From assembly GCA_050693035.1 (NCBI GenBank), contig JBOGWB010000061.1, positions 6,834 to 70,833 on the forward strand: 64,000 bases of DNA, given 5' to 3'. Made by a program: the position numbers and the translations under genes. The notes beneath the pieces are model-generated. The model was not told where the DNA came from and did not search any database. It saw only the letters and a list, made by a program, of their open reading frames with translations. This DNA comes from Actinomycetota bacterium. GTDB lineage: Bacteria > Actinomycetota > UBA4738 > CALAEC01. Position 1 is the first letter of the stretch, and every line of letters starts with the position of its first letter. This document shows positions 13,801 through 32,314 of the stretch, one piece after another.

Positions 13801-15753
13801 GACGCCGTAGGAAACCTCAGGACTCGCACCGACGCCAAGACGCACGTGACCACGTACGGTTACGATCAAGCCAACCGTCTCTCAAGCGTCACGTTGCCCC
13901 TGAACCGGCAATGGACCTACGACTACGATGCGTCGGGCAACCTCACAACGACCATCGATGCGGCAGGAAGCGCGACTCCCCAAACTGGAGACGGCACGAC
14001 CACCTACTCGTACGATGCGCTGAACAGGCTCACCGGCATCGACTACAGCGACGCCACTCCCGATGTCACCTTTGGTTACGATGCCAACTCAAACCCCACC
14101 TCGATGACCGACGGAGCCGGGACCGAAACATACACATTCGACGATCTCGACCGCCTCACGCGAGTTACCCGCGGAAGCCAAACCTTTTCTTACGAGTACG
14201 ACGCCGCCGGGAACGTTACCAAGAGGACCTACCCCGACAGTACTGTAGTGGACTATTCGTATGATGACGATGGCCGTCTCTTGAACATCACTTCCGGTGG
14301 AGCCACGACGACCCACGGCTATGATGTGGCTGGGAATCTCACACAGATCACGCTGCCTTCCGCGAACGGATATGGCGAAACCCGCACTTATGACCGTGCG
14401 GGACGGCTTACAGAAGTGAAGAATGCGAAGGGGACGGATGTCCTCTCGCGGTTCACCTACACGCTCGATGCCGTAGGCAACCCGACCCAGGTCGTCACGC
14501 CAACGGAGACAATCACCTATCAGTACGACAACATGGATCGCCTGACCGAAGTCTGCTACCAGGCGAGCTGCCCCGGGGCCAATGACCCCTTCATTCGACA
14601 CAGTTACGATAACGTTGGGAACAGGTCAACCGAGACTCGACCGGCCGGAATCACGACGTACAGCTACAACGACGCCGATCAGCTCACCTCACGTAGCGGG
14701 CCGAGTGGGACCACCTCTTACTCCTATGACCCCAACGGGAATCAGACCGCCGCAGGCAACACGACCTTCACCTATGACCTGGCAAACCGGATGAAGTCCG
14801 CCACGACAGGCCCCACGACCATCACCTACACATACGATGGCGCAGGGAAGCGCCTGCAGGCTTCATCCGGGAGCCAGGCTTCCAAGAAGACAAACTACCT
14901 CTCGGACGTCAATGGAATTCTTAGCCAGCTTGCCCTTGAGCGTGATGGCAGCGACCGGCTGCTCCGACGATATGTGCATGGACACGATCTCGTTTCCATG
15001 AGCACCGGAGGCGCCCCATACTACTATCACCACGACGGACTGGGGAGCATTGCCAATCTCACTTCAGACAAGGGCGTGCTTCAGTGGACATACTCGTACG
15101 AGCCCTTCGGCGTTGTCCGTAGCGAGATCAAGAACAACCGCAACGCACCCACAAACCTGATGCGCTTCGCCGGCGAGCTGCTTGACACGACCACGGGCCT
15201 CTATCATCTCCGGGCCCGAGAATACGATGCAACCACGGGACGGTTGCTCAGGATTGATCCGCTACCTGCTCCAATCTCGGCACCCTACACGGGACGATAC
15301 GTATACGTCGGCAACCGGCCGACTGTTCTAGTCGATCCCAGCGGGCTTCGGGGAGTCGACAAGTCAGGCTGTCCCTACTGGGGACGGCTGTTAACCTTCG
15401 GGGAGTGGGAGAACGTCTACTGCGAGGGCTTCCAGAGCATGAGCCCAGGGTGGCAGGCGGCTCTGGGTGGGAACTGGAACTTTAGTGCCTGCTGGTACGG
15501 CTGTATTACCGTGGGGGCCGAGGGCATTTCCATCGGGTTCTTCCAGTTTGGGCCCGGCAAAACACGAATTCGACAGGGCTTCGGCTTCGCCGCTTACGCG
15601 ACGATTGGATCAGAGCCTGAGAGCGGACTGTCTGCCATGGTCTGCAATGGCGTTTGCCTAGGCGGGTACGGGAATGTTGGGGCGCCGGGAGGAGGCGCGC
15701 AGGTGGGAATCGGCACGCCCGGCGTATTTTTGGGCGGGAATATCGAACCGTGA
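10891..15753 (+). CDS. secreted RHS/YD-repeat polymorphic toxin (WapA-like)
   Basis: ATG at 10891 gives the signal peptide MALRRLLVVLIIPLIVF. It has seven PD40-like repeats, then DPVNSATGSFVTSATDIALPGIGIPFVFSRSYTS, dozens of YD repeats (Y.YD..GNL...TDP.GN) and the RHS core YYYHHDGLGS...GLYHLRAREYDATTGRLLRIDP...VLVDPSGL, followed by a 134-aa variable tail. Confidence 0.9.
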   Translation: MALRRLLVVLIIPLIVFELPPLPGLDRSPQPAWADGPGTSLVSIGDAEEFPNGTGEFGSISSDGRYVAFESAASNLVAGDTNSKLDVFVRDRVAGTSRRVSISSSGEQGNGHSGGPPSISGDGRFVVFTSQATNLVSGDTNGITDVFAHDLVTGTTTRVSVDSSGNQSNDISSLPRISGDGRYVVFQSDASNLVPEDTNGGVFGQDIFLHDRVTAETSRMSVGPSGQQCDCDSSDPSISSDGQFVAFRSDGLTPGESHVGFAIYVRQVSPYDIEIVSNGPEDTPANGNTGELSWISADGRYVAFASWATNLVPNDTNELEDIFLHDRLTRSAKRVNLSSSGAQANNYDFGAVRRISVSAHGRFIAFASDATNLVPFDTNMQRDIFVRDVVAGTTTRVSVDNSGNQSSSASERPAISSNGRYVVFDSRMLSGGSLQVHIRDQGPLLSIPDAQTFGPCQSATHAANPTDCQSDPVNSATGSFVTSATDIALPGIGIPFVFSRSYTSADTSPGPLGIGWTHNYGVSLTIQPNGDAIFRAETGQQIPFTLQADGSFLPPSGGRSTLRAVQGGYELLTRDQIRYRFDTQGRVTSLKERNNQGLTFSYDADGRLNVITDSVGRAISLTYNPSGLLSGVSVPDGRSVAYGYTSGRLSSVTDVRGGTSSYTYDANGWLEAVVDANSHTVVTNTYGSGGRVIRQVDALGNPSTFSWDSATQTQTMTDARGNTWQDVYSGNVLIRRIDPLGNTITFDYDDDLNLMSITDPRGNTTLLAYGQAGNLISRTAPRPLAYKETFKYDAQNNLVSRRDGRGNTTRYDYDAAGNLIRVTEPGNVVTEYGRHPDGTGQLVSITDPRLKVTRFDYDTSGNLTTITSPLGNVIRICYDSAGRMTSLVEPRGITCANPDDYRWVYTYDAAGNMLTETDPLGNRTTWGYDSAGNLTSRIDAKDRTTSWAYNAANELTSVTAPGNIITSYDYDAVGNLRTRTDAKTHVTTYGYDQANRLSSVTLPLNRQWTYDYDASGNLTTTIDAAGSATPQTGDGTTTYSYDALNRLTGIDYSDATPDVTFGYDANSNPTSMTDGAGTETYTFDDLDRLTRVTRGSQTFSYEYDAAGNVTKRTYPDSTVVDYSYDDDGRLLNITSGGATTTHGYDVAGNLTQITLPSANGYGETRTYDRAGRLTEVKNAKGTDVLSRFTYTLDAVGNPTQVVTPTETITYQYDNMDRLTEVCYQASCPGANDPFIRHSYDNVGNRSTETRPAGITTYSYNDADQLTSRSGPSGTTSYSYDPNGNQTAAGNTTFTYDLANRMKSATTGPTTITYTYDGAGKRLQASSGSQASKKTNYLSDVNGILSQLALERDGSDRLLRRYVHGHDLVSMSTGGAPYYYHHDGLGSIANLTSDKGVLQWTYSYEPFGVVRSEIKNNRNAPTNLMRFAGELLDTTTGLYHLRAREYDATTGRLLRIDPLPAPISAPYTGRYVYVGNRPTVLVDPSGLRGVDKSGCPYWGRLLTFGEWENVYCEGFQSMSPGWQAALGGNWNFSACWYGCITVGAEGISIGFFQFGPGKTRIRQGFGFAAYATIGSEPESGLSAMVCNGVCLGGYGNVGAPGGGAQVGIGTPGVFLGGNIEP
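11053..12217 (+). repeat. seven tandem ~58-aa PD40/TolB-like beta-propeller repeats (protein-level) inside the RHS gene
   Basis: The unit S(S/G)DGR(Y/F)V(A/V)F.S.A.NLV..DTN...D(V/I)F..D recurs near RHS ORF residues 83, 140, 199, 259, 317, 378 and 437. Confidence 0.7.
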
Positions 15754-16960: not shown

Positions 16961-18169
16961 GTGAGTAGGCGGCGTGGATACGGCGACGGAACGGTCAGGC
17001 AGCAGGGCCGACGATCGTGGCAAATCAGGGTCCCACTGGGTGCGGATCCGCTGACCGGAGCGTGGCTCAGGCACACCGAAACAATCACCGGAACCAAGGC
17101 TGAGGCGGAGAGAAGACGGCGGGAACTCCGCCTCGAGCGAGACAGAGGAACCCTTGCGACCCCGGGCAACAAGACCCTGGAGGAGTACCTCAGGAAGGAG
17201 TGGCTCACAGCCGTCTCCCATGTGTCGAAGCGCGGCCAGCCACTCGCTCCCACCACGCGCAGGCGATATGGGGACGTCGTCGACCACGTCTGCCGGTTGA
17301 TCGGCGACGTGAAGCTGGCCTCCCTGCGCACCGCCCACGTCGAGCGGCTCCGGGACGAGATGCTCAGCGAGACGCTGGAGCGGAAGAGCGGTGAGGTCAT
17401 CCCTCGCTTCAGCCCCCAGACCGTGGGCGACATCCTGCGAGTGCTGTCGCAGGCCCTGCGCAAGGCCGAGGCCAAGGGGCTGATCTCCAGGAACTGGGCG
17501 GACCCGACCCTCGTCGATCGTCCCGCCGGTCAACCCAGGGAACTGCCCCCGATGGAAGAGGATCTGGCGAAACGCATCCTGGAAGCGGTCCGGGGGGAGG
17601 ATCCCTGGGACGCGGCGGTTCATCTGGCATTGGGCCTGACGATGCGCCGAGAGGAGGTTCTCGGCCTCCGCTGGCCAGACGTCGACCTGCGGGAAGGGAT
17701 CCTCACCGTCAGGAACACGATCACCTACACGCCCAGACAGATGCACGAAGGGGGACCAAAGACGGAGGCTGGGAGGCGGACGGTCCCCGTGCCAGCGTTC
17801 GTGGGCGAGGCCCTTCGCCGCCATCGGAAGCAGCAGTCGAGGCGGCGCCTCCGCCTAGGGTCGGCTTGGCGGGACGGGTGGGACGTGGTGGTAGATCGGG
17901 GCGACGGTGCACCTTGGCTGCCCCCCACGTTTTCCAGAGCGTGGACGTCCTTCGCCAAGAAAGCGGGCTTCCCTGACATCGGGTTCCACGAGCTCCGACA
18001 CGGCGCTGCGACCCTCATGCTCGCCGCGGGGATCCCGGACGCGGTCGCCATCAAGTTGATGGGCCACCGAGACACCCGCATCCTCAGGCGCTATCAGAAA
18101 GTCGTCGACCGGCTCAAGCGAGAGGCTGCTGGGAAGTTGGACGAGCTGCTGGGCGGCCCGGGGAGCTGA
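16961..18169 (+). CDS. tyrosine-type site-specific recombinase (integrase)
   Basis: The GTG start gives a 402-aa protein. The N-terminus GYGDGTVRQQGRRSWQIRVPLG is SAM-like. Catalytic motifs are GLRWPDVDL, HELRHGAATLMLAAGIPDAVAIKLMGHRDTRILRRYQKV. Confidence 0.9.
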   Translation: MSRRRGYGDGTVRQQGRRSWQIRVPLGADPLTGAWLRHTETITGTKAEAERRRRELRLERDRGTLATPGNKTLEEYLRKEWLTAVSHVSKRGQPLAPTTRRRYGDVVDHVCRLIGDVKLASLRTAHVERLRDEMLSETLERKSGEVIPRFSPQTVGDILRVLSQALRKAEAKGLISRNWADPTLVDRPAGQPRELPPMEEDLAKRILEAVRGEDPWDAAVHLALGLTMRREEVLGLRWPDVDLREGILTVRNTITYTPRQMHEGGPKTEAGRRTVPVPAFVGEALRRHRKQQSRRRLRLGSAWRDGWDVVVDRGDGAPWLPPTFSRAWTSFAKKAGFPDIGFHELRHGAATLMLAAGIPDAVAIKLMGHRDTRILRRYQKVVDRLKREAAGKLDELLGGPGS

Positions 18170-19658: not shown

Positions 19659-20780
19659 TCACCTCTTGTCGGTGGGCCAATGAATCGGCTTTTTGAGATC
19701 GTTGAGGTGCGATCGCGGCACCTTGGCGTCCCGTTGAAGCCGGCCTACAACAATCCCGGGAGCAATTTCCTGGGCCTGCGCGAAGACACGAATAGCGCTG
19801 GCGCTGAAATCGCCCGCATCGACGAACGCCTGGTACTCGTGTGGTGGCAGCAGAACGTCTCGGGCGAACCGGTTCGCCGTCTCCTCGTCAGCGTCGGAAT
19901 CCGGGGGAAACTCCAGGTCGACCGGGTCGACGAACTCTCGCTTTCGAGAAGAGGTGAGGACATGGCCAGCCTCATGGAAGAAAGTGAACCAGAAGTGATC
20001 GTCCGACTTATGGCGCGCGCTGAGCTGGATGACTGGACTGCCACCGACCCAGCGGATAGCGCCGCTGATGTGCGTGCCCTCGAACTCAGGGGTTAGGAGA
20101 ACGATGACGCCGGCCTTGGCGCACATCGTTATGACCCGATTGAGAATCTGCATGAATGGACCACGGCGCGTCATTGGTCGAATCTGTTCCAGGACCTGCC
20201 GGAATCCATGGGCATCAAAGGGCGGCAGATCAGCAATCTCGGCGGCTAGGATCTCGCCCCAGCGCAGCCAGGCGGCCACCGCCTTAGGTGATGCCATGAA
20301 CGCCGGTGACGAACGGTAGGCCGCCTCCGGAGCAAGCCAATGCCGCTCGAAGGCTTCGGGGCTGCTCACCTGGAAGAAGGAGAGCAGCTCGGCCAGCGTT
20401 CCCGCTTTCGTAGCACCACGCCGGATCAGGTCGCGCCGGATGAGATCCTTGAGTGGGAAGCCATCGGCCCAACTGGCATTGGCCTCAAGTTCCTTCTGGG
20501 CCTCCTGACGGGCCGCATGTTCGCGAAACCTGGTCTCCAGCCCTGTCCAGAACCTCGCCGAGATGCCGAGGGCCCGCTCAAGCTGGATCGCCGTCTCAGC
20601 GGTGATCGCTGCCTTGCCCTTGATGATCTCGTTGATGGTCTTCAGGGGGCGCGCCATCCGGCGGGCCAGCTCGGACTGTGTCATCCCGCGATCCTGCAAG
20701 GACTCAAGGAGGATCTCGCCGGGCGGGACGGTCCAATCGGGCTGCCAGCCCGACGTTGGGTCATTTGCCATGGTAGTCAA
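19659..20780 (-). CDS. HigA-type XRE HTH fused to ImmA/IrrE-type zinc metallopeptidase
   Basis: The N-terminus PGEILLESLQDRGMTQSELARRMARPLKTINEIIKGKAAITAETAIQLERALGISARFW is a HigA/VapI HTH. The C-terminus FWFTFFHEAGHVL carries HExxH. The start overlaps the upstream HigB-like gene. Confidence 0.8.
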   Translation of the reverse strand: MTTMANDPTSGWQPDWTVPPGEILLESLQDRGMTQSELARRMARPLKTINEIIKGKAAITAETAIQLERALGISARFWTGLETRFREHAARQEAQKELEANASWADGFPLKDLIRRDLIRRGATKAGTLAELLSFFQVSSPEAFERHWLAPEAAYRSSPAFMASPKAVAAWLRWGEILAAEIADLPPFDAHGFRQVLEQIRPMTRRGPFMQILNRVITMCAKAGVIVLLTPEFEGTHISGAIRWVGGSPVIQLSARHKSDDHFWFTFFHEAGHVLTSSRKREFVDPVDLEFPPDSDADEETANRFARDVLLPPHEYQAFVDAGDFSASAIRVFAQAQEIAPGIVVGRLQRDAKVPRSHLNDLKKPIHWPTDKR

Positions 20781-21072
20781 CGACCTCCTTGATCACGATT
20801 TTCGTCACTCGGGCCCGGTCGGTGCCTCCAGCGGGCAACCGGGGCAACGGATCGTGATCGGGTTCGAAGATCAGTCGATACGAACCCCACAGGTCGACAG
20901 CGAACTCGCCGGCACGGTCTGCACGAAGCTGATGGCAGTTGCCCGGCACCCCTTCCATGTCCCGCAAGGTCGGAGCGGCCATCAACGACGCCAGCCGAAG
21001 CTTGAGCCGCCGCCAGTTTTCCGCGCCCCAACGCTTCGCTCCCCGTCGATCGTCGGAACACGTCTTCTCCAA
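20761..21072 (-). CDS. HigB-like (RelE/ParE superfamily) toxin; true 5' end unclear
   Basis: LRLASLMAAPTLRDMEGVPGNCHQLRADRAGEFAVDLWGSYRLIFEP...VIKEVVDYH matches the plasmid-maintenance killer HigB pattern. Homology continues upstream of the TTG at 21072 (KIEISWSNRRLEK, to about 21110), where no canonical start is present. Confidence 0.65.
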   Translation of the reverse strand: MEKTCSDDRRGAKRWGAENWRRLKLRLASLMAAPTLRDMEGVPGNCHQLRADRAGEFAVDLWGSYRLIFEPDHDPLPRLPAGGTDRARVTKIVIKEVVDYHGK

Positions 21073-21165
21073 CCTACGGTTGGACCACGAAATCTCGATT
21101 TTCGCTCCCTTGACTTCTTCACCCTTGGGGTTAATACTACACTACCCCTAGGGAGGAATACCAGG

Positions 21166-22302
21166 GTGGCCAGGAGGTGGGTTCAACAGGCATTCGAGGA
21201 CGTGGATTTCGTCCCGGTGCCCGGTGGCAGCGGTCACTACGTCGCGGCCGTCCAGAACAAGTCCGGCGAATTGGATGCACTCCGCAACGCTTCGGCGGAG
21301 ACGTGGAGCCGGCTGACCCCGCTCGTCCAAATCGTGGGCCCCAAAAAGCGGCCTGAAGCACACAAGCGAGACACGGTCGCCGGCTGGGTCAAGCGCATCT
21401 CCCAGGCGGTTGGTCATCGGCCATGTTTCCTAGACGTCCTCCGCCTTCGTCCAGGACATCCCACGACGACATCCGGGGGAGCCGAGCCGATTCTCAGCGT
21501 CATCCACGCGGCGGCTCGGAAACGCGGCATGGTCTTCGTCCCGGTCCTGCCCATCGGCCGTTCCGACGGCAGAGATTACGTGCGCCTCGCCGGCGAGGCC
21601 GTGGCCTGCGATGGACGAGGCGCCGCGCTGCGGTATCCGATACGGCGCTTCGCGCTGGAACCAGGCGAGACCCACGCGACCGTGCTCGCCGAGGCCCTCA
21701 GGGACCTGGGGATCGACGTGACTCGTGCAGACGCCCTCGTCGATCTCGGCTACCTCTCAGGGGACGAGGAGCTGCACCTCGAAGATGTGGACGAAGCCCT
21801 CAAGGAGGTGACTGCCGTCGGTCCGTGGCGCAGCCTCGTGCTGCTCGGCACCTCGATGCCATCCATGCTCGGAGGGACGGTCGGCGAGGGAACGATCGGC
21901 GAGCTGCCGCGCCGAGAGTGGGAGCTATGGTCCGCGCTTCAGCAGGATACCTCTAGGCGAATGCCAACCTACGGCGACTACGTCGTTCAGCATCCTGATC
22001 CGCCACGCGACGAGGATGGTGGTGGCCCCGGCATGCGAGCCAACATCCGTTACACAATTACGAGCACCACGCTCGTTGCTCGGGCGCGCGGGCCGCTAAT
22101 CCAGGAGGGCCGGGAGCAGTACCGGGACCTCTGTCAGCAACTCGTCGCCAGACCGGAGTTCTCGGGCCCCGACTTCAGTTGGGGAGATTCAGTGATTGCT
22201 GCATGTGCCAGCGGGGAAAGCGAGCCCGGATCGCAGAACCAGTGGCGAGGAGCAGGATCATCCCACCACTTCCGCGTTGTGACACAGGCGCTCAGCCGCT
22301 GA
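21166..22302 (+). CDS. beta-protein family (PF14350-like; sce7725-like) protein
   Basis: GTG at 21166 is preceded by GGGAGG. HYVAAVQNKSGELDALRNASAETWSRLTPLVQI matches the Y.P.L+.K.GE..AL...TPL.E. opening of the T4 beta-protein family as I recall it. The upstream 200 codons of track ORF 20563..22302 are antisense to higBA and were ignored. Confidence 0.6.
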   Translation: MARRWVQQAFEDVDFVPVPGGSGHYVAAVQNKSGELDALRNASAETWSRLTPLVQIVGPKKRPEAHKRDTVAGWVKRISQAVGHRPCFLDVLRLRPGHPTTTSGGAEPILSVIHAAARKRGMVFVPVLPIGRSDGRDYVRLAGEAVACDGRGAALRYPIRRFALEPGETHATVLAEALRDLGIDVTRADALVDLGYLSGDEELHLEDVDEALKEVTAVGPWRSLVLLGTSMPSMLGGTVGEGTIGELPRREWELWSALQQDTSRRMPTYGDYVVQHPDPPRDEDGGGPGMRANIRYTITSTTLVARARGPLIQEGREQYRDLCQQLVARPEFSGPDFSWGDSVIAACASGESEPGSQNQWRGAGSSHHFRVVTQALSR

Positions 22303-23083
22303 CGTCAACAGTGCAGAACCGACGCGTGGGGATGCGAGCGAGACCGGGATCCCGCGCGAGAATGGCCCTGCGGACCACCTCTTTCAACCGATCGACGTCA
22401 ACCAGGCTGATCAGGTGGCCCCACATCGACGACCGACTGGCCTGAGCATCGGGTTCATGCCCGAGCGCGGCCAGAACCGCGCGAACCTCCTCTCGCCAGA
22501 GGAGCCGAACCAGCGTCTCGGGATCGACGCCGTGGTTGGGAGTCGCCGATCGCACGGAGCGGAAGGACGGCTGCCCCTCGTCCGTGACGATGGTCACGAT
22601 ACCCCACCACTCGGGCAGCATCTCCATCGCGGCAGCGACATGGCGTTCCGCTAGGACGATGGTGCACCGATCGAAAAGACGAGCGTAAGCGGTCGCCTGA
22701 CGTGGGAGTCGCTTGAGGGTATCTCGCTCTGTCTTTATTTCGAAGGCCGACATGTGGCCGCCGACAACCACGACATCGGCTCTCTCATTCGAGCGCGGCA
22801 CCCAGAATTCGTAGATGGTCTCGCTCGGAGTCTTGGCTGAGGCGACTATCTCAGCGCGCAGCCGGTCTCGGACGATCGCCTCAGTCGCCTCCACAGGCCG
22901 ACCCAGCCTCGGAGGTGGGAGGGCCAGCCATCGGAGTTCACGCACGTGAGTGAAGCTGTCGTGAGGTCCCGCGCATTCCTTGGCAAGGTCAGAGCAGGAC
23001 GCCGCTCCGAACATACGTTCGAGTATGGGAGGGGCCACCGACACGCCGGCTAGTCGACCATAGGGGCGCCTCCGACACCACAT
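22292..23083 (-). CDS. PD-(D/E)xK nuclease-fold protein (sce7726-like / MmcB-like)
   Basis: ERADVVVVGGHMSAFEIKTERDTLKRLPRQATAYARLFDRCTIV carries D-x11-E-I-K. The likely start is ATG at 23014 (MFGAAS...). The 3' end overlaps the convergent beta-protein gene by 11 bp. Confidence 0.6.
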   Translation of the reverse strand: MWCRRRPYGRLAGVSVAPPILERMFGAASCSDLAKECAGPHDSFTHVRELRWLALPPPRLGRPVEATEAIVRDRLRAEIVASAKTPSETIYEFWVPRSNERADVVVVGGHMSAFEIKTERDTLKRLPRQATAYARLFDRCTIVLAERHVAAAMEMLPEWWGIVTIVTDEGQPSFRSVRSATPNHGVDPETLVRLLWREEVRAVLAALGHEPDAQASRSSMWGHLISLVDVDRLKEVVRRAILARDPGLARIPTRRFCTVDVSG

Positions 23084-23312
23084 CTTGAGGCGAAAAACCC
23101 TCCCGGGATGGACCCCCTGGGATCGCCCAACCGATCGGCCGCCTTGATTGCTCCATCGATTCGAGGACGTGTCGCCGAGGCCAGTCGTGGGCCATCTCTG
23201 CCGTCTTCGGGAGGAAGCAAATAGGGCGGAACATAGGGCGAGAATTACTCGGAGGAACAGACGTTCGAATCGCGAAGTCAGGGAAACCGCAGTTCAAGAG
23301 GGTTCTTCTTTG

Positions 23313-23385
<73 letters not shown>

Positions 23386-23409
23386 GTGGCTCCAAGTCTA
23401 CCAAGGGCC

Positions 23410-23841
23410 CTACCGGCCCGTGGACCCGAACCCTCCCCCGCCTCGGTCCGATCCGGGCAGCTCGGGAACCTCCACCGGTTCCACCTGGGCGAACGGGACC
23501 ACTAGGAGCTGGGCGATGCGGTCTCCCCGGCGGATCTCCACGGCATCTTCCCGGTCCAGGTTCACCACGGCCACGATGATCTCCCCCCGATACCCGGCAT
23601 CGATCAGGCCCGGCGCGTTGGCCAGCGTGAGCCCGCGCCCGGAGGCCAGCCCGGACCGGGGAAGGACCAGTCCGGCATGGCCCGGGGGGATGGCCACGGC
23701 CAGGCCCGTGGGGACCAGGGCCCGGTCCCCCGGTTTCACCGTGACGTCCTCGTTGGACCGCAGATCGAGCCCGGCGTCGCCTTCCTTCGCGTAGGAGGGA
23801 AGGTCGACGGCCCGGTCGAGCCGCTTGAACTCGAGTCTCAC
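23410..23841 (-). CDS. dut: dUTP diphosphatase
   Basis: GDAGLDLRS, RSGLA...GL.LANAPGLIDAGYRGEI, GDRIAQLLV and C-terminal GGFGSTGR are canonical trimeric dUTPase motifs. Confidence 0.93.
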   Translation of the reverse strand: MRLEFKRLDRAVDLPSYAKEGDAGLDLRSNEDVTVKPGDRALVPTGLAVAIPPGHAGLVLPRSGLASGRGLTLANAPGLIDAGYRGEIIVAVVNLDREDAVEIRRGDRIAQLLVVPFAQVEPVEVPELPGSDRGGGGFGSTGR

Positions 23842-23944
23842 ACCGCGGGAAGCCTACCGGTCGGGACCACCATCAATCCACGCCGAGAGGAAAACTCGCC
23901 CGGCTTTGACCGTCCGCCGGGCGCCCCATATCCTGCCACGGCCG

Positions 23945-24916
23945 ATGACCGCTCAGACCTGCACCCGATGCGGGGCTGCCCTGCGTGGCGGGGTGTGCCC
24001 GAACGGCCACCCGCAGAGGGTGGCTCGGCGACGACGTCGGGGCCGGCGATGGGGCCGGGCTCTGTCCCTGGCCATCCTGGTCATCCTGGTCGCGGGGTCC
24101 GTGTACGGGGCATTCGCCTGGTACCCGCGGCAAGTCGCCGGGCAAGCCGTCGGCCCGACATCGCGGGCGTTCTCCGACGGTCTCGAGGCGTTCCAGGGGA
24201 TGCTGGCCGGCTACCCCGTCCGGCCCCGGCGCGGGGCCATCGAGGCCGGAGCAGAGGCCATCCTGGAGCGCGCCGATCCCACGCGACAGGCACTGGGGGC
24301 GGGCCAGGGCGAGCTCGTGGAGCACCGGCTCCCCTCCCTTCCGGTCATCGGGACCCGCCCGCCCCTCTCGATCGCCGCGGGCGTCCAGGACGAGATGGCC
24401 TTCTTCTACACGGGGGCGCTCGAAGTGGTGGCCGATCTCGAGGGGATAGCCCGATACCTCACCCAGATCGATCCGACGCTTCCGAAGCTCGACAACCTGA
24501 GGGAGGAGCTCGGGAACCCGAGGACGCCGGGAGAGATCGCCCGTGCCGCCGCGGGGGCCCGAGCGGTGGCCCGCCAGCTGATCGCCGACCTCAGGGCCGT
24601 CACGCCACCGGAGGAGGTGGGCCCCATCCACGCCGCTCTGCTCGCAACGGCCCAGGCCATTCGCCGGGACCTCGATGACATCGACCGCATCAGCAGGCAG
24701 GGCCGCTCTCCGGTGCTCCGGGCGCTCATCGAGGACGTGGAGAGCCGGATCGGGTCATACCGCGACACCTTCACGACCGCCCCCGGGGAGACCATGGACG
24801 CGGCATTGGAACCTGCCATCGCCGCGGTGAACCGGTCCGTCCGGCGGATCGTCCAGAACCTCACCGTGCTCCGGGAGGAATACGGGGTCACGGGCCTCAC
24901 CGTGCCCCGAGGCTAG
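23945..24916 (+). CDS. hypothetical zinc-ribbon membrane protein
   Basis: MTAQTCTRCGAALRGGVCPNGH is a zinc ribbon, followed by the TM segment ALSLAILVILVAGSVYGAFAW and an extracytoplasmic helical domain. ATG at 23945 was chosen to avoid overlapping the divergent dut. Confidence 0.6.
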   Translation: MTAQTCTRCGAALRGGVCPNGHPQRVARRRRRGRRWGRALSLAILVILVAGSVYGAFAWYPRQVAGQAVGPTSRAFSDGLEAFQGMLAGYPVRPRRGAIEAGAEAILERADPTRQALGAGQGELVEHRLPSLPVIGTRPPLSIAAGVQDEMAFFYTGALEVVADLEGIARYLTQIDPTLPKLDNLREELGNPRTPGEIARAAAGARAVARQLIADLRAVTPPEEVGPIHAALLATAQAIRRDLDDIDRISRQGRSPVLRALIEDVESRIGSYRDTFTTAPGETMDAALEPAIAAVNRSVRRIVQNLTVLREEYGVTGLTVPRG

Positions 24917-24926
24917 ACTGCTTCTC

Positions 24927-26153
24927 GTGCGCGAGCCCGGCTTCAGGGCGAGAGTGTTTGGTGACGCGTCGGGCGCCGTGGCCGATCTGGGGCTCCTGAT
25001 CCCAATCGCCGCGGCACTCATCGTCGAGAACGGTCTCGATGCAGGGACCGTGTTGGTGGGAGCGGGCGCGCTCTACGTCGGGGCCGGAATGTACTTCAAG
25101 GTTCCGGTGCCGGTGCAACCGATCAAAGCGGCGGCGGCCATCGCCATCGCCAGGGACCTGCCTCCGGCAACGATCGGGGCGGCCGGGCTCCTGTTGGGGT
25201 TCATCCTGGTGACCCTGTCGGCAACCGGTGCGGCGCGGTTCCTCGTTCGCGTGTTCACGAGGCCCATCGTCCGGGGCCTGCAGCTGGGGGTGGGGCTGCT
25301 CCTCCTCGAGAGCGCCTTGCGCCTTCCCAGGCCGCCCGTCGGGCCCGCGACCTGGACGGCCGTAGCCCTCACCGTCCTTCTCCTCGTCATGGCCGCCCGC
25401 AACCGGCGCTGGCCGCTGGCGCTAGGGATCGTCGCCGGCGGCGTCCTGTGGTCTGTCCTCAGCGGCCCGTATGCCGTGTCGCTGGAGCCGGAGCTGTGGC
25501 GTCCCACCTTCCTCACCGAGGTCTTCCACCCGGCCGTGCTCCTGTCGGCCCTGACGCTCCTCGTCATCCCGCAGATACCGCTCACATTCGGCAATGCCGT
25601 CGTGGCCCTCACCGACCTGGAGCATCGGTACTTCGGAGATCAAGCCCGGCGGGTGAGCCCCACCAGTGTCAGCCTGTCGTGCGGACTGGCCAACGTCGTG
25701 GTGGGAAGCCTCGGCGGGATGCCCCTGTGCCACGGTTCGGGGGGGCTGACCGCTCATTACCGTTCCGGCGCACGAACCTACCGAATGAACCTGCTGATCG
25801 GGCTTCCCCTCTTGGTCTTGGGGCTGGGTTTCGGCGCCACGGCGTTCTCCGCTCTGGGGCTCATCCCGGTGGTCGTGCTGGCAGGGCTCCTCGCGTTCAC
25901 CGGCGTCATGCACTCCCTGCTCGTCGCCGATCTGCGCGGATACGACCTCGCCGTCGCTCTCGGGATGGGAGCGGTCGGTCTCTGGACCTCGAACCTGGCC
26001 GTCTCGTTGGGACTCGGCCTAATGCTCGTGTGGCTGCCTTCCGTGGTGCAAGAGATGCGCCGACGGCGGAAGCGGGTGCGGCGGAGTGACGGTGGGGTCG
26101 GCCGAGTTGCGTCTGCGAAACTGAATCAGACCTCGGATCGGCAGAGGCCCTAG
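24927..26153 (+). CDS. putative sulfate/molybdate (MOT1-like) family transporter
   Basis: About 10 TM segments. The N-terminus FGDASGAVADLGLLIPIAAAL...YFKVPVPVQPIKAAAAIAIA resembles the molybdate-transporter-1-like family. Confidence 0.65.
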   Translation: MREPGFRARVFGDASGAVADLGLLIPIAAALIVENGLDAGTVLVGAGALYVGAGMYFKVPVPVQPIKAAAAIAIARDLPPATIGAAGLLLGFILVTLSATGAARFLVRVFTRPIVRGLQLGVGLLLLESALRLPRPPVGPATWTAVALTVLLLVMAARNRRWPLALGIVAGGVLWSVLSGPYAVSLEPELWRPTFLTEVFHPAVLLSALTLLVIPQIPLTFGNAVVALTDLEHRYFGDQARRVSPTSVSLSCGLANVVVGSLGGMPLCHGSGGLTAHYRSGARTYRMNLLIGLPLLVLGLGFGATAFSALGLIPVVVLAGLLAFTGVMHSLLVADLRGYDLAVALGMGAVGLWTSNLAVSLGLGLMLVWLPSVVQEMRRRRKRVRRSDGGVGRVASAKLNQTSDRQRP

Positions 26154-26258
26154 CCTCAGCCCGCAGGGGCCCAGCCAAGACCCTGGGTCCTGCTGGTTCT
26201 TCCCTCGCACACGAGCGCTCTAATGCGCGAGGCCGAATCCGGAACCTCACAGGGTGTG

Positions 26259-27716
26259 TCAGTTACTCCTTCCAGCGGCTCCTGCTTCTACCCAGGCTGT
26301 GGAAATCGCCAGCTCTGGAACAGCCGCTCTGAGTTTCTTCAAGCAGACGGTCTTCTTTGGGCCGTCTCCGCACCTGCGAAGCGAAAGTATGAGAGCCCTC
26401 CTCAGATGAGCGTCCCCGATCGTCAGGGCAAGCTCCGTCGCGTGGACGGGTCTCCAGCCTGGACCTCGTGCTCTCGCCTCCACACCCCAAGACCGACGGG
26501 GAACATATTGAGAAACGTCCCCTCCTAGGGACGTTTGCTCAACCTCGGCGGCCTCGACTTCACCGAGCCGTCCGCTGGAAAGGGCTCGCAGAAGGTGGAG
26601 CTGTTGAGCTGCGGAACGATCGTCGCAGGGCAAAGATGCCTGTCCTACAATCCACGCAGCATCGATGCGACGGGCAGCCAACAACCGCCCAAGGTAGGAA
26701 CCGCACTCGCGGGGAGCGATCGTCAAGATGTCGGGTCGAGATTGAAGAAGCGGGAAGGCAAACGGGTCGTCTCTCGCTCCCAGAACCTTGAGGCAAAACC
26801 GAACTCGTCTCGGGCTTGGCTCCTGCTCACCAAACCCCGACTCCAGCAGCGCTTTGACATGGCGGATGCCGTCTCCTGCCTGGAGAGCCTCGCTGACACG
26901 ACCGAGTGCAGGGTCCAGTAGAAAGTGCTCCGCCGGTAATGCGCCTTCGATAAGGTGAGTCTTCTCCTCGTTTAGCTGAAGACCGAGATTCGACACCTCC
27001 ATCCCGATCACGCCACGGATAGCTTCCCAGTCATAATCTCCGGAGAGATAGATCCGCACGTCGTCGGTGTAACGATCGAATGAGTGCCCCCATCCCCGCA
27101 GAGCGTGGTCCACAGAGACGAGAGCAGCGTTGCCCAGGATTCCAGACCCTTCCAGTCCGATAGGCAACCCCCGAACCCCCACATCTCCCGCATGGTCTGG
27201 AGCCATCCCAATAGGTCGGTGATCGCCCCACGATCGCACCCGACCCTTAGAAGCGCCCGAGAAAGGGCTTCGGAAGTAAGCGATGGATAATATTCTCGGA
27301 TGTCCACGGTTCCGAGGGCCGCGAAGGAAGGGTCAGAGAGAATCTGCTTGGCTCGATCTCGTCGAACCCGGTTCGCGTAAGCTGTGGCCCTACAGGACCA
27401 ACCTGGAGGCCATCGGACCAGCCGATAGGATAAGTTTTCCGGGCCCCATCTCCGCTTCGACAGAGGCAGCGACCCTCCCAACAAGCCATCGATATCCGAT
27501 CTCATCAATTGGTTCCGGCACGACCATCCGTCTCAGGCTGGGAGAGCTCTCTTTAGGCAACGGGAACGTGTGGCACGGAGCAGGCAGTGGTTGCTTGAGT
27601 CTCCTCAAAGCCGAAAGGGCGGCACGCTCGTCGAAGGCTGCATAGTCAGCCCAACCGACGACGTCGGGAACGGTCCCGCTCCCTTGTCCAGGGCCGCCCA
27701 GCGTGGAGAGTCTTGA
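26259..27716 (-). pseudogene. reverse transcriptase (UG/Abi-like, non-retron) read across three frames; pseudogene or homopolymer assembly errors
   Basis: Frame X (to 27390) reads FPLPKESSPSLRRMVVPEPIDEIGYRWLVGRV, RT motifs 1-2. Frame Y (27008..27508) reads LSYRLVRW...GTVDIREYYPSLTSEAL, motif A. Frame B (26259..27239) reads RGLPIGLEGSGILGNAALVSVDHAL, FDRYTDDVRIYL (YxDD) and GLQLNEEKT, then about 230 aa of helical tail. The Y-to-B shift lies at two G5 runs (27168-27180). Confidence 0.7.
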
Positions 27717-27798
27717 CTATCTCAGAGACGGCGCGTCCTGAGCCTTCCTTCCCCGTTCTAAACGCGATTCCTGAGAAGACGCCTTCCTATCTCTTTCC

Positions 27799-30588
27799 CT
27801 ACGAGCAGCCGCTGGTCGATCCGCAGGAGGAGCACACGTAGCACGATCCCGCGGGCTGCATCTTGGAACCGCACGAGTAGCACAGCGGGGCGTCGATTGC
27901 CTTCAGCTCGGGACGCTCTTTGGACGCCTCCCCCGCGGGCGCCACCGACGACGACGGCATGGACGGACCCACGCCCGCGACCGGCTCCCCACCGGTTGCG
28001 GGCGTGCTCGCGGCAGCGGCGCCTCCACTCGTACCGTTCGCCGCCTTGCGCTCGCCCACGGACTGGATCCCCAGTGCCGCTCGCTTCTCCGCGGGCAGAT
28101 ACTCCAGAGCCAGCCGGCGGAAGATGTAGTCCACGAGCGAGGCGGCGAACCGGATCTCCGGGTCGGCGGTGATCCCGGAGGGCTCGAAGCGCATGTTGAC
28201 GAACTTCTGCACGTACGCCTCGAGCGGAACGCCGTACTGGAGTCCCAGCGACACGCTGATGGCGAAGGCGTCCATCACCCCGGAGAGCGTGGAGCCCTGC
28301 TTGGCGACCTTCAGGAAGATCTCGCCGATCCCGTCGTCGGGGTACTCGCCGGCGATGATGTAGCCCTCGGCGTCGCCGACCCCGAACGAGATGGTCTTGG
28401 ACGGACGCGTGGCCGGCAGCCGGCGCCGAACGGGGCCGCCCTCAGGAGCTGCCGCCGCTGCCTGCTTCACCTTGCTGTCGGCCGACAGCGGCTGGGCGAC
28501 CTTGCTGGCGTTCCGGTAGATGGCCACGGCCTTCAGGCCGAGCTGCCATCCCTCCACGAGCAGCTGCTCAACCTCTTCCACGGTCACGTCCTCGGGCATG
28601 TTGACGGTCTTGGAGATTGCCCCGGAGATGAACGGCTGCACCGCGGCCATCATCTTCACGTGGCCCATGTAGTGGATGGCCTGCTCGCCCATGGACGTGT
28701 CGAACACCGAGTAGTGCTCCTCCTTGAGGTGCGGCGCCGCGGCCACGGAGTTGTGCTCGGCGATGTAGTCCACCACGTCTCGGACCTGCTCGTCGGTGTG
28801 CCCGAGCCGGCGAAGGGCCCGGGGCACCGTCTGGTTGACGATCTGCATCGTGCCCCCGCCGACCAGCTTCTTCGTCTTCACCAGGGCCAGGTCGGGCTCG
28901 ATGCCGGTGGTGTCGCAATCCATCATCAGCCCGATGGTCCCGGTGGGTGCGATCACCGACGCCTGGGCGTTCCGGTAGCCGTGCTGCTCGCCGAAGGCGA
29001 TGGCGTGGTCCCAGGCATTCCTGGCCGCGGACAGCAAGCCCTCCGGCACCAGCTCGGCGTCGATCTCGTCGGTCGCGGCCCGGTGCTTGCGCATCACCCG
29101 GAGCATGGGGTCCCGGTTCGGCGCGTAGCCGGCGAAGGGACCCATCTTCTCGGCCACCCGTGCCGACGTGGCGTAAGCGTGCCCGGTCATGAGGGCGGTG
29201 ATGGCGCCGGCCCAGGCCCGACCGCCGTCGGAGTCGTACGGCAGACCTCGGGCCATCAGCAGAGCGCCGAGGTTCGCGTATCCCAGGCCGAGCTGCCGGA
29301 ACGCCTTGGCGTTCCGCTCGATCTTCTCCGTGGGGTAGCTCGAGTTGCCCACGATGATCTCCTGGGCGGTGAACACGACCTCCACGGCGTGACGGAACGC
29401 GGGGATGTCGAAGTTGCCGTCCGCGTCGATGAACTTGAGCAGGTTCAGGCTGGCCAGGTTGCACGCCGAGTTGTCCAGGTGCATGTATTCGGAGCACGGG
29501 TTGCTCGCGTTGATGCGCCCGGATGCCGGGCACGTGTGCCAGTCATTGATGATGGTGTCGTACTGCATGCCCGGGTCGGCGCACTCCCAGGCGGCCTGGG
29601 CCATCTGACGCATGAGGTCCCGGGCCCGCAGCGTCTTCAGGGTCTCGTCGCCGGCGATCGCCTTCAGCTTCCAGTCGCGATCGTCCAGGTACGCCTGCAT
29701 GAACTCGTCGGTCACCCGGACGGAGTTGTTGGCGTTCTGGTACTGGGTCGAGTGTGAGTCCTTGCCGTCGAGGTCCATGTCGAAGCCGGCGTCCCGGAGG
29801 ACCCGGGCCTTCCGCTCCTCCACGGCCTTGCACCAGATGAAGCCCTCCACGTCCGGATGATCCACGTTGAGGACGACCATCTTCGCCGCCCGGCGGGTCT
29901 TGCCCCCGGACTTGATCGTCCCGGCCGAAGCGTCGGCCCCGCGCATGAAGGACACCGGCCCGGAAGCCAGACCACCCGCGGACAGCCGCTCCTTCGACGA
30001 GCGGATCGGGGACAGGTTGATCCCCGAACCCGACCCACCCTTGAAGATGGTCCCTTCCTCCACGTACCAGTTGAGGATGGAGCTCATCGTGTCGTCGATG
30101 GCGAGGATGAAGCACGCCGAGCACTGCGGGTGGGCCTCGACCCCGACGTTGAACCACACCGGAGAGTTGAACGCGGCCTTCTGGGTCACCAGCAGATGGG
30201 CGAGCTCGGAGGCGAACACGTCGGCGTCGCCCTCCACGGCGAAGTACCCACCTTTCAGGCCCCAGCCCTTGATGGTGTCGACGACCCGGCCGATCATCTG
30301 CCGGACCGAGGACTCCCGCTGGGGAGTGCCGAGGGGGCCACGGAAGTACTTCTGGGCGACGATGTTCGTGGCGTTCTGCGACCAGGACTTCGGAAACTCC
30401 ACCCCGCGCTGCTCGAAGGCGTTGCCGCCCTCCTTGTAGTTCGGGATGACCGCGTCGCGGGTCTCCCATTCGACCTCGTCGAAGGGATGCACACCCTCCT
30501 TCGTGAAATACCGACGGAAGGTCAGCCCCTGACCCTGGGTCCCGATGTCGCCTTCCTTCGTCGCCACGGCGCCCTTCCCCCCTTCCAT
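27799..30588 (-). CDS. nrdJ: class II (adenosylcobalamin-dependent) ribonucleotide reductase
   Basis: LTFRRYFTKEGVHPFDEVEWETRDAVI, NPCSEY, and a C-terminal Cys-rich tail CYSCGSKMQPAGSCYVCSSCGSTSGCS. ATG at 30588 (MEGGKG) was chosen because it lies downstream of the NrdR boxes. Confidence 0.92.
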   Translation of the reverse strand: MEGGKGAVATKEGDIGTQGQGLTFRRYFTKEGVHPFDEVEWETRDAVIPNYKEGGNAFEQRGVEFPKSWSQNATNIVAQKYFRGPLGTPQRESSVRQMIGRVVDTIKGWGLKGGYFAVEGDADVFASELAHLLVTQKAAFNSPVWFNVGVEAHPQCSACFILAIDDTMSSILNWYVEEGTIFKGGSGSGINLSPIRSSKERLSAGGLASGPVSFMRGADASAGTIKSGGKTRRAAKMVVLNVDHPDVEGFIWCKAVEERKARVLRDAGFDMDLDGKDSHSTQYQNANNSVRVTDEFMQAYLDDRDWKLKAIAGDETLKTLRARDLMRQMAQAAWECADPGMQYDTIINDWHTCPASGRINASNPCSEYMHLDNSACNLASLNLLKFIDADGNFDIPAFRHAVEVVFTAQEIIVGNSSYPTEKIERNAKAFRQLGLGYANLGALLMARGLPYDSDGGRAWAGAITALMTGHAYATSARVAEKMGPFAGYAPNRDPMLRVMRKHRAATDEIDAELVPEGLLSAARNAWDHAIAFGEQHGYRNAQASVIAPTGTIGLMMDCDTTGIEPDLALVKTKKLVGGGTMQIVNQTVPRALRRLGHTDEQVRDVVDYIAEHNSVAAAPHLKEEHYSVFDTSMGEQAIHYMGHVKMMAAVQPFISGAISKTVNMPEDVTVEEVEQLLVEGWQLGLKAVAIYRNASKVAQPLSADSKVKQAAAAAPEGGPVRRRLPATRPSKTISFGVGDAEGYIIAGEYPDDGIGEIFLKVAKQGSTLSGVMDAFAISVSLGLQYGVPLEAYVQKFVNMRFEPSGITADPEIRFAASLVDYIFRRLALEYLPAEKRAALGIQSVGERKAANGTSGGAAAASTPATGGEPVAGVGPSMPSSSVAPAGEASKERPELKAIDAPLCYSCGSKMQPAGSCYVCSSCGSTSGCS

Positions 30589-30680
30589 CCGGCCGTCCGG
30601 CCCCGGGGAAGCGGAGCCGAACGGAGGAAATGACAGTGGTGTGATTCTACGCCCGTCGTCCGAACCTGGCAACCATGATA

Positions 30681-30733
30681 CGCCGAGATGTTGTGGCTGA
30701 CCAGCCCACATACCACAACATGTTGTGGTATGT
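30681..30733 (-). promoter_or_regulatory. tandem NrdR boxes upstream of nrdJ
   Basis: A perfect 26-bp palindrome ACATACCACAACA|TGTTGTGGTATGT (30708-30733) has the core CCACAACATGTTGTGG. A second half-conserved box cgccgagATGTTGTGG (30681-30696) sits 32 bp centre to centre from the first. Confidence 0.75.
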
Positions 30734-30750
30734 CCCGGAAGGGGCGCTGG

Positions 30751-31224
30751 TCAGCGACGGGCTCGCTTGGGCTCTTTTTTCTGGAGCAGGAGCCCGAGCT
30801 CTCGCTCGAAATCGGTGAGCTCCTGGAAGTCCTTGTAGACCGAGGCGAATCGCATGTAGGCGACCTCGTCGACGCCCCGAAGCCCCGACAGCACCTCCAG
30901 GCCGACCTCCTGTGTGGTGACCTCGGGGCCGCGCCGGCGGAGCTGCTCCTCGACCCGGGAGGCCAGGCGCTCCACCTCTTCCTCGGAGACCGGGCGGTTC
31001 TTGATCGCCTTGACCACTCCCGCGACCAGCTTGGCCCGGTCGTAGGGCTCCCGGCCGCCGTCGCGCTTGATCACCGCCAAGCGGAGGCCCTCGGCCCGCT
31101 CGAACGTCGAGAACCGCCGTCCACAACTCGAGCACTCCCGGCGACGCCGGATGGCCTGCCCGTCCTCCGACGGGCGGGAATCCACCACCCGAGTATCGGG
31201 GCTCCCACACCAGACGCAGCGCAT
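30751..31224 (-). CDS. nrdR: transcriptional repressor NrdR
   Basis: MRCVWCGSPDTRVVDSRPSEDGQAIRRRRECSSCGRRFSTFE is the zinc ribbon, followed by an ATP-cone. The protein is 157 aa from the ATG at 31224. The longer track ORF is an upstream read-through artefact. Confidence 0.93.
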   Translation of the reverse strand: MRCVWCGSPDTRVVDSRPSEDGQAIRRRRECSSCGRRFSTFERAEGLRLAVIKRDGGREPYDRAKLVAGVVKAIKNRPVSEEEVERLASRVEEQLRRRGPEVTTQEVGLEVLSGLRGVDEVAYMRFASVYKDFQELTDFERELGLLLQKKEPKRARR

Positions 31225-31320
31225 CACGGCCCTCCGCCACAGCATCCTGGACCCGCCGCGTGCCGAACACAAGATGTGGGGGGCTCCACGCCGAGAGCCC
31301 GCCCCGGGCCATAATCGGGC

Positions 31321-32004
31321 ATGCCCCAGGAGTGGGAGCTCGTGCTGCGGCTCGTGGTGGCCGCGCTGCTCGGCGGGGCAGTCGGGCTCGAGCGCGAGAT
31401 CTCCGACCAGCCGGCAGGCTTCCGGACCCACCTCCTGGTGTCCCTGGGGTCGTGCCTGTTCGCCCTGGTCTCGGCGTTCGGGTTCAGCACGTTCCTCGGG
31501 GACCAGCCGCCCCAGGTCACGTTCGACCCATCCCGGGTGGCCGCCCAGATCGTCAGCGGGATCGGCTTCTTGGGGGCCGGGGCCATCATCCGCTACGGGA
31601 TGACCGTCCGGGGGCTCACCACCGCCGCCAGCCTCTGGGTGGTGGCCGCCATCGGGCTCGCCGCCGCCCTGGGCGCCTATCTCACCGCCGCGGTGACCGC
31701 AGGGATCACCCTGCTGGCCCTGTGGGGGCTGAAGAGGATACGGCCGCTCTTGGTGCGGGGCCTGAAGGAGGAGCACGAGGAGCTCGTCCTGGACGTGGAG
31801 CACAACCTCCAACTCGACTACCTGGTTCGGGCGCTGTCCCGGGAGGGGATCACCGTCGACCATCTCAGGGTCGAGGAGGAGGAGGGGGAGGGGAGCCGCC
31901 AGATCGTCCTGTTCGTCAAGCTCCCGCCGGGCGTGCGACCCGAGCAGGCCGTATCGTTCATCGACAACATGCCGGGCGTCCGCAACGTGGACTGGACCCC
32001 GTAG
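31321..32004 (+). CDS. MgtC/SapB family membrane protein
   Basis: LVLRLVVAALLGGAVGLEREISDQPAGFRTHLLVSLGSCLF is the MgtC family signature. The C-terminal domain is ACT-like. Confidence 0.85.
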   Translation: MPQEWELVLRLVVAALLGGAVGLEREISDQPAGFRTHLLVSLGSCLFALVSAFGFSTFLGDQPPQVTFDPSRVAAQIVSGIGFLGAGAIIRYGMTVRGLTTAASLWVVAAIGLAAALGAYLTAAVTAGITLLALWGLKRIRPLLVRGLKEEHEELVLDVEHNLQLDYLVRALSREGITVDHLRVEEEEGEGSRQIVLFVKLPPGVRPEQAVSFIDNMPGVRNVDWTP

Positions 32005-32008
32005 GTCG

Positions 32009-32314
32009 CTAGCCTTGCGGCACCAGCAGGGAGGCACCGGGGAGCAGCGGCTCCGACGGGGCCAGGGCGTTTGCCGTGCGGATCCGCTCCACGAATGGTC
32101 GGGGATCTCCCTCTGGCCCCACCGCGGCCCGGGCGATCTCCCACAGCGTGTCGCCCGGCCTCACGACGTACCGCTGGACGGCGGGGCTGCGGCCGGGTGG
32201 GGCTCCGCCGCCGCCACCCAGAGCGACCCGTCCGGTGGCCAGCACCAGGCTCCCCACCAGGGAGAGTGAGACGCCGAGCCGGACCCATCGAACCCGTGTT
32301 CGACCCACGGGCAC
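32009..32314 (-). CDS. LysM-domain membrane protein divergent from lexA; start uncertain
   Basis: YVVRPGDTLWEIARAAVG...FVERIRTANAL...LLPGASLLVP is a LysM domain, and a TM segment precedes it. GTG candidates lie at 32314 and 32308, and the ORF is open to 32368. The position mirrors the LexA-regulated LysM gene next to lexA in mycobacteria. Confidence 0.65.
   Translation of the reverse strand: MPVGRTRVRWVRLGVSLSLVGSLVLATGRVALGGGGGAPPGRSPAVQRYVVRPGDTLWEIARAAVGPEGDPRPFVERIRTANALAPSEPLLPGASLLVPQG

Follow-up and report, generated by a model that had tools for sequence, protein, structure and literature searches.

Mestre et al. (PMC9226505) defined the Class 1 UG/Abi architecture of reverse transcriptases (RTs), in which an alpha-repeat C-terminus follows the RT domain. 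The characterized Class 1 members DRT4 and DRT6, each a single-gene system, synthesize random single-stranded DNA (ssDNA) by protein priming and without a template, and a phage SSB-like protein stabilizes this ssDNA and thereby triggers them (PMC12783706). In the case of DRT9, escape mutations map to phage nrdA and nrdB (PMC12483538), and sensing of the nucleotide pool has been proposed for both DRT9 and DRT1 (PMC12483538, PMC13275509). Here we describe an RT locus in a 64,000-nucleotide stretch of contig JBOGWB010000061.1 from an Actinomycetota bacterium (the whole stretch is called the window hereafter). The UG/Abi-type RT lies on the minus strand at 27786-26259, directly 3' of nrdJ, the gene of a class II, B12-dependent ribonucleotide reductase (RNR). 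It is very probably a pseudogene that lost its function recently and derives from a single-gene Class 1 UG/Abi RT with an alpha-repeat tail, nearest to UG23 but not clearly within it.

Three frameshifts of one nucleotide each were pinned by alignment of homologues to the DNA, at 27672, at 27440 and in the G-run 27176-27180, and the conceptual product after the three corrections has 508 amino acids (aa), the usual length of the family. An earlier note on this DNA had located two of these sites correctly, namely the extra base at 27440 within GGGGCCCGGAAAA and the missing base in the G-run 27176-27180, and had missed the extra base at 27672. The open reading frame (ORF) list of the window holds three overlapping fragments of the RT directly after the nrdJ stop codon (27799-27801), which are given here together with the parts of the gene:

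26259..27786, minus strand, whole RT pseudogene (end-to-end alignment with 490-510-aa homologues; stop codon at 26259-26261, no start codon)
27390-27608, minus strand, ORF fragment of 72 aa (ORF list)
27008-27508, minus strand, ORF fragment of 166 aa (ORF list)
26259-27239, minus strand, ORF fragment of 326 aa (ORF list)
27673..27786, minus strand, segment 1, the N-terminal 38 codons (EGVF...HAGRPWTRERD), matching the family motif AGxxWxxxRD
27672..27672, minus strand, frameshift 1, one extra base (GAC-C-GTT; homologue alignment)
27441..27671, minus strand, segment 2, VPDVVGWAD...EMGP, with RT motifs 1-2 (translation and homologue alignment)
27440..27440, minus strand, frameshift 2, one extra base (homologue alignment)
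27177..27439, minus strand, segment 3, ENLSYRL...REMWG, with motif A and the conserved Tyr of AYANRVRR (translation and homologue alignment)
27176..27180, minus strand, frameshift 3, one base missing in the G-run (the homologues, with W-G-V, imply G6; the window has G5)
26262..27176, minus strand, segment 4, with motif B (GLPIGLEGSG), YTDD and motif E, then an all-helical alpha-repeat domain of ~220 aa (translation and structure model)

Segment 1 is in the frame of nrdJ, but two TAG stops lie between them and the segment is without ATG, GTG or TTG. Its 38 codons (…LHAGRPWTRERD) match the family motif AGxxWxxxRDxPDxxGWAD and are in a different frame from the segment downstream. No ATG, GTG or TTG was found anywhere between the nrdJ stop and the conserved RT N-terminus. 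All the RT motifs that had been listed for this locus were recovered by six-frame translation, every quoted peptide on the minus strand and in its place:

27566-27552, minus strand, FPLPK
27533-27483, minus strand, RRMVVPEPIDEIGYRWL (motifs 1-2)
27307-27278, minus strand, VDIREYYPSL (motif A)
27170-27120, minus strand, GLPIGLEGSGILGNAAL (motif B)
27074-27048, minus strand, RYTDDVRIY (YxDD)
26984-26958, minus strand, GLQLNEEKT (motif E)

The motifs had been described as spread over three frames. That the gene runs through several frames is correct, but the quoted peptides occupy only two of them and the third belongs to the new N-terminal segment at 27786-27673.

With three single-nucleotide indels and its start codon lost, the RT is non-functional in this genome. 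The inactivation appears recent because the repaired RT has no in-frame stop, retains all 14 family-invariant residues and departs from conserved columns at 9 of 68 positions, within the range of the other, intact members (4-26). Several of these nine departing columns are artefacts of a first crude repair, in which the three ORF fragments were joined into a protein of 488 aa that also served as the basis of the initial profile scores and of the structure model. Programmed frameshifting was considered as well and rejected; three shifts, not all of the same sign, would be required, and no slippery-site or structure signature was seen.

The repaired protein passes the cut-off of Pfam RVT_1 (35.5 bits, 1.1e-8; cut-off 29.6) and aligns end to end with homologues of ~500 aa, so that its identity as an RT is far beyond chance. 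The palm motifs of the RT superfamily are present, with the Asp of motif A (VDIREYYPS) and the YTDD of motif C. Based on PADLOC searches, the window RT matches RT_UG23 (4.6e-24), RT_UG32 (3.7e-22) and Drt8 (9e-20) best, and the top nine matches are all UG/DRT models, with the retron-type models reaching at best 3.9e-10 over the core only. RT_UG23 is matched by all 21 aligned family members and is the top model by best E-value (6.9e-45). Two observations speak against a simple assignment to UG23: the match amounts to 83 bits in the window and 58-135 bits in the intact homologues and covers positions ~9-340 of the 489 in the hidden Markov model (HMM), and UG32 and Drt8 score close to UG23, with one family protein (P0001) preferring UG20. 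Since the match is partial and UG32 and Drt8 follow close behind, we name the family UG23-like and not UG23. Like UG23 (Mestre et al. 2022, PMC9226505), its members have ~490-510 aa, an RT domain and a HEAT-like alpha-repeat C-terminus, and RT_UG23 is the best, if partial, PADLOC model for the window RT. In contrast to UG23, the 2TM-NUDIX or SLATT partners (PMC9226505) are lacking and nrdJ is the constant neighbor here; no NUDIX or SLATT gene was found among the neighbors in the window (nrdJ and MFS_MOT1) or among the Pfam-annotated neighbors in the homologous loci.

A word-indexed homology search recovered only two relatives of the RT, and an exhaustive HMMER search was required to reveal the extent of the family, with 937 cluster representatives up to an E-value of 1e-3, of which 96 reach 1e-30 or lower. 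The full-length matches have 490-510 aa and are at most 37% identical to the window RT; a single fragment of 266 aa is 100% identical (NCBI MGH2682735.1, 'MAG: hypothetical protein [Actinomycetota bacterium]'). A scan of viral contigs gave no relatives of the window RT, so there is no evidence for a phage-borne origin.

The structure predicted by AlphaFold2 with the 21-sequence alignment (mean predicted local distance difference test, pLDDT, 91.4; predicted template modeling score, pTM, 0.92) shows an RT domain followed by 13 helices at residues 262-480 of the 488-aa model (pLDDT >90). A helical-repeat tail of about 230 aa had been proposed from the sequence, and in the model residues ~262-480 are indeed all helices, so the fused C-terminal alpha-helical-repeat (alphaRep/HEAT-like) domain that is a trait of Class 1 UG/Abi RTs is present in the prediction. 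The best Foldseek match in the PDB is the hexameric DRT6 (UG12; 9wy8; PMC12783706), followed by DRT4 (UG15; 9vdo; PMC12783706), with template modeling (TM) scores of 0.67 and ~0.52 over the full length, and then by Abi-P2, AbiA and AbiK. A profile-based search of the sequences in the PDB is in agreement, and designed alpha-Rep proteins match residues 396-489 of the RT. The earlier view of the locus as a UG/Abi (DRT-like) RT and not a retron or group II RT thus agrees both with the top PADLOC models and with the fold.

With DRT6 and DRT4 the family shares the single-gene architecture and the domain order, and the nrdJ-linked members described below have a conserved Tyr that lies near the register of the DRT4 priming residue Tyr125 and may be its counterpart. 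It differs from them in sequence (14-16% identity), in that the window copy is dead, and in that oligomeric state, protein priming and template independence are predictions for this family. With AbiK, Abi-P2 and AbiA (7r06, 7r08, 8oz7; PMC9508834, PMC11077055) it has in common the RT-like palm and fingers and a helical-repeat domain (Foldseek probability 1.0), but the TM scores are 0.45-0.53 and the HEPN domain that AbiA has is missing. In addition, those proteins come from Lactococcus or E. coli prophages, whereas the present family belongs to Actinomycetota and none of its members was on the viral contigs scanned. By analogy with DRT6, DRT4, Abi-P2 and AbiK, the intact relatives of ~500 aa would most likely be oligomeric, protein-primed, template-independent ssDNA polymerases, and abortive infection would follow when a phage stabilizes or boosts the polymerase product. 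It counts against this proposal that it is drawn from similarity of fold at 10-16% sequence identity. The Tyr in AYANRVRR is invariant in a 9-sequence alignment of the nrdJ clade (A2) and variable across the wider family; judged from the HMM register it may correspond to Tyr125 of DRT4, which makes it a candidate for the priming residue.

The surroundings of the RT in the window are formed by the following genes:

27799..30588, minus strand, nrdJ, intact, directly upstream of the RT
30751..31224, minus strand, nrdR, 157 aa, upstream of nrdJ on the same strand
24927..26153, plus strand, MFS_MOT1 molybdate transporter, convergent with the RT

The nrdJ ORF as listed (970 aa) runs to 30711, its homologues begin ~47 codons inside it, at ~30570, and the nearest upstream ATG is at 30588; nrdR corresponds to the last 157 codons (start 31224) of a 428-aa ORF at 30751-32037 on the minus strand. 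A search with nrdJ retrieved four contigs (loci L030-L033) whose nrdJ is 89-93% identical to that of the window and which share a long synteny with it (miaB-miaA-dapF-...-hflX-lexA-mgtC-nrdR-nrdJ-...-dut). As to whether the insert might be lacking in relatives, a check that the earlier note had proposed, in these four a convergent transporter follows 4-28 nt after nrdJ and the RT is absent. The nucleotide homology between L032 and the window ends exactly at the nrdJ stop (27799) and starts again at 26076, within the 3' end of MOT1, and the last 26 codons of the window MFS_MOT1 are beyond homology with this relative. Therefore the window has a segment of 1.7 kb, bearing the RT, that the sister genomes lack, which reflects either a gain specific to this lineage or a loss that the sister genomes have already completed. 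No convincing target-site duplications were found at the edges of this segment. Between nrdJ and the DUF5324-like and dut genes is a slot that is filled by MFS_MOT1 in the window and in L032, and by modABC with a ModE-like regulator in L030, L031 and L033; since different molybdate-uptake systems occupy it while nrdJ is 89-93% identical, the slot is a general point of gene flux.

Scans of genome and metagenome contigs, together with look-ups of individual homologues, provided 30 further RT loci; for locus scanning the 21-sequence alignment was too divergent and a 9-sequence alignment was used instead. In nine of the 30, the nrdJ C-terminus (…CGSTSGCS*) lies directly upstream of an intact RT and on the same strand (L005 of Modestobacter excelsi 1G6, L020, L021, L023, L026, L029, L035, L036 and L037). 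To call the RT an orphan wedged in beside nrdJ, as had been done, is accordingly misleading, its place directly downstream of nrdJ being common to nine intact homologues. Pairwise RT identity is 28-60% among the nine, and 28-59% among six of these loci (L005, L020, L021, L023, L026 and L029). The closest homologue of the window RT, L004, is on a contig that begins too near the RT to show nrdJ, and it has DUF5324-like and dut genes downstream, as in the window. In a neighbor-joining tree, which was built before L035, L036 and L037 were available and does not contain them, the nrdJ-linked RTs form one clade with L004 and L022, L029 being a deep exception, and a second clade made of Acidimicrobiales and sponge-symbiont metagenome-assembled genomes (MAGs) is not nrdJ-linked. 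Literature searches returned no report of an association between nrdJ and an RT, and no conserved partner gene was found downstream of the RT across the homologous loci.

The spacer between nrdJ and the RT is short and operon-like in L037 (5 nt) and L036 (29 nt) and measures 90-220 nt in L005, L020, L021, L026, L029 and L035. Strong hairpins occur in the spacers of L005, L020 and L035, of which those of L005 and L020 look like nrdJ terminators. The longer spacers also contain three to four tandem units of 21-24 nt each, with an ATGTC or GTGAC core:

L005:4142-4230, spacer with tandem units
L020:313-400, spacer with tandem units
L021:4731-4810, spacer with tandem units
L026:4753-4850, spacer with tandem units
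L029:1520-1620, spacer with tandem units

One such unit, TCGGTCACGAATGTCCACGGA, is found three times in L029. The periodicity of the units is conserved, their sequence is not, and neither the window nor the short-spacer loci have them; they may be protein-binding sites. It was also observed that nrdJ of several relatives is split by inteins (L021:1-4730, L026:1-4752, and likewise proteins P0159, P0188 and P0253). Their products have 1,279-1,333 aa, LAGLIDADG and intein-splicing domains included. No intein interrupts the nrdJ of the window.

This recurrent placement could mean that the 3' flank of nrdJ is a variable hotspot for the insertion of defense genes, where the RT has no functional tie to the reductase, and we consider the chances of this to be about even. 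The content of the slot differs in close relatives (MOT1, modABC, or RT plus MOT1), and the RT segment of L034 is identical to that of L035, with upstream sequences that part exactly at the nrdJ stop. In these two metagenome loci (L034:1-2600 and L035:1-2584) the block of 2,179 identical bases covers the RT together with the first part of a type IV restriction enzyme; upstream of it L035 has nrdJ and L034 an unrelated ORF, the breakpoint being exactly the nrdJ stop codon. Either the RT block is mobile or the pattern is due to a chimeric assembly. The alternative is a conserved nrdR-nrdJ-RT unit in this clade of Actinomycetota, with the RT co-transcribed and sometimes translationally coupled with the reductase and the window as a decaying member, which we hold to be possible but rather doubtful. 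In its favor, no other gene ever comes between nrdJ and the RT, the two always share their direction and in some loci just 5-29 nt, with no terminator, separate them, and a hotspot alone offers no obvious reason for a fixed strand, order and translational-coupling distance in ten loci.

Several results weigh against such an operon. The genes downstream of the RT are variable and defense-like: L036 has a type IV methyl-directed restriction enzyme there (698 bits), L034 and L035 have a gene of similar build, and L005 has a PD-T4-6-like kinase. The G+C content at third codon positions (GC3) of the RT is often far below that of the host. In the window it is 0.60-0.66, as compared with 0.92 for nrdJ, and the RT region has 60% G+C versus 67-70% in the flanks; across the loci RT GC3 ranges from host-like (L020, 0.86 vs 0.87) to clearly foreign (0.60 in the window, 0.59 in L026), with 0.71 in L023. 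Foreign GC3 and variable, defense-like downstream genes are easier to reconcile with a hotspot filled by horizontal transfer than with a functional nrdJ operon. RT identity and the identity of the last 100 residues of nrdJ are uncorrelated (rho 0.006), a comparison that is uninformative about co-divergence because the nrdJ tail is a hypervariable linker. In the nrdJ-linked clade the RT follows nrdJ, often at a distance of 5-45 nt, and would probably be either co-transcribed with the NrdR-controlled reductase or an occupant of a defense hotspot there. DRT9 (UG28; PMC12483538) provides a precedent for RT defense tied to RNR-driven levels of deoxynucleoside triphosphates (dNTPs), but it belongs to a different class, needs a noncoding RNA (ncRNA), makes poly-dA and is tied to phage RNR activity and not to adjacency with host nrdJ. 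The hotspot competes only with the operon, and the RT of the window is dead either way.

The earlier note had also suggested that the gene may be intact in the organism. The frameshifts would then be assembly or sequencing errors at short homopolymers, and in support of this one shift falls within a G5 run, the others lie beside short runs and the source assembly is a MAG. We regard this as improbable. Three indels fall inside 500 bp in addition to the missing start codon, and two of the three shifts are outside long homopolymers. A Logan contig produced by another, k-mer-based assembler (L003; SRR27067773) is 100% identical to the window over 4,957 bp (23359-28315), and nrdJ (2.8 kb) and ORFs of 1,640, 1,094 and 926 aa are unbroken although the window contains 175 homopolymer runs of at least 5 bases; artefacts are unlikely because of these two observations. 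The lack of the RT at this site in close relatives is consistent with ongoing loss, and from the three frameshifts, the missing start codon, the Logan identity and the RT-less genomes with 89-93% identical nrdJ it follows that this is a real, young pseudogene. Two points count somewhat against it. The Logan contig may stem from the same reads as the MAG, its support being at the level of assembly. Furthermore, the intact RT of L023 (L023:598-700) also shows no ATG, GTG or TTG between the nrdJ stop and the conserved N-terminus, and the only options for its start are CTG, ATT and ATA, or else an ORF in another frame whose overlap with the nrdJ 3' end is ~95 nt. The nrdJ-linked clade may use non-canonical initiation, which slightly weakens the argument from the missing start codon of the window RT.

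Between nrdJ and the RT, 80-190 nt had been taken as intergenic, and their inverted repeats as possibly the nrdJ terminator or a small structured RNA. A DRT- or retron-style ncRNA or a terminator at 27609-27798 that works with the RT is very unlikely, even if short inverted repeats are present (TCTCAG/CTGAGA at 27721-27777) and some DRTs need an ncRNA (PMC9226505). The sequence encodes the N-terminal ~60 residues of the RT, with the motif AGxxWxxxRDxPDxxGWAD that is conserved in the family. The junction folds no better than shuffled sequences (z-scores of +0.41 for 27690-27810 and +1.12 for 27700-27798; 133-175 of 200 shuffles fold as well), and no terminator-like site was found between nrdJ and the RT of the window. 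Rfam searches gave no credible family in 25500-31500, group II introns included, and none at gathering thresholds in ten homologous loci. Moreover, the single-gene Class 1 relatives DRT4 and DRT6 are template-independent (PMC12783706).

That the RT is the remnant of a retron or group II intron RT has practically no probability, because the NCBIfam group II and retron models (4e-9 and 1.6e-7) match, like CRISPR models, only ~120 residues of the catalytic core and lie far under their curated cut-offs (36 vs 300 bits for TIGR04416, 30.9 vs 235 bits for the retron model), UG/Abi models score much higher over longer stretches, the C-terminus is an alpha-repeat domain and not a maturase or endonuclease, whose absence had been rightly pointed out, and Rfam detects no intron or msr/msd RNA.

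Apart from the RT locus, positions 1-23300 of the window form a large island of low GC3 (0.68-0.8 vs 0.85-0.92 in the core), bounded by a tRNA-Gly at 23312-23385 on the minus strand, which probably represents an integrated defense and toxin island:

10831-15753, RHS-repeat toxin
16961-18169, tyrosine integrase
19659-20780, helix-turn-helix (HTH) plus ImmA/IrrE protein
20563-22302, PD-Lambda-2_C/Beta_protein homologue (PADLOC 4e-44)
22292-23083, 'cll' homologue

The window element itself is a dead gene, ordinary in kind, and changes little, whereas the recurrent placement next to nrdJ is a worthwhile lead. It concerns an RT lineage of roughly 100-350 sequence clusters that may be a subgroup outside the current UG/DRT profiles and whose members, in divergent Actinomycetota including the cultivable Modestobacter excelsi 1G6, repeatedly come first behind nrdJ and share its strand. 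If the site is only a hotspot, it would be a conserved insertion site for defense genes from which actinobacterial immunity genes could be mined. If, instead, the coupling proves functional, it would provide a testable link between dNTP-consuming defense RTs and the dNTP-supply regulon of the cell itself: a dNTP-polymerizing defense enzyme would be wired to the NrdR/dNTP-sensing regulon, as a host-side counterpart of the dependence of DRT9 on the phage RNR.

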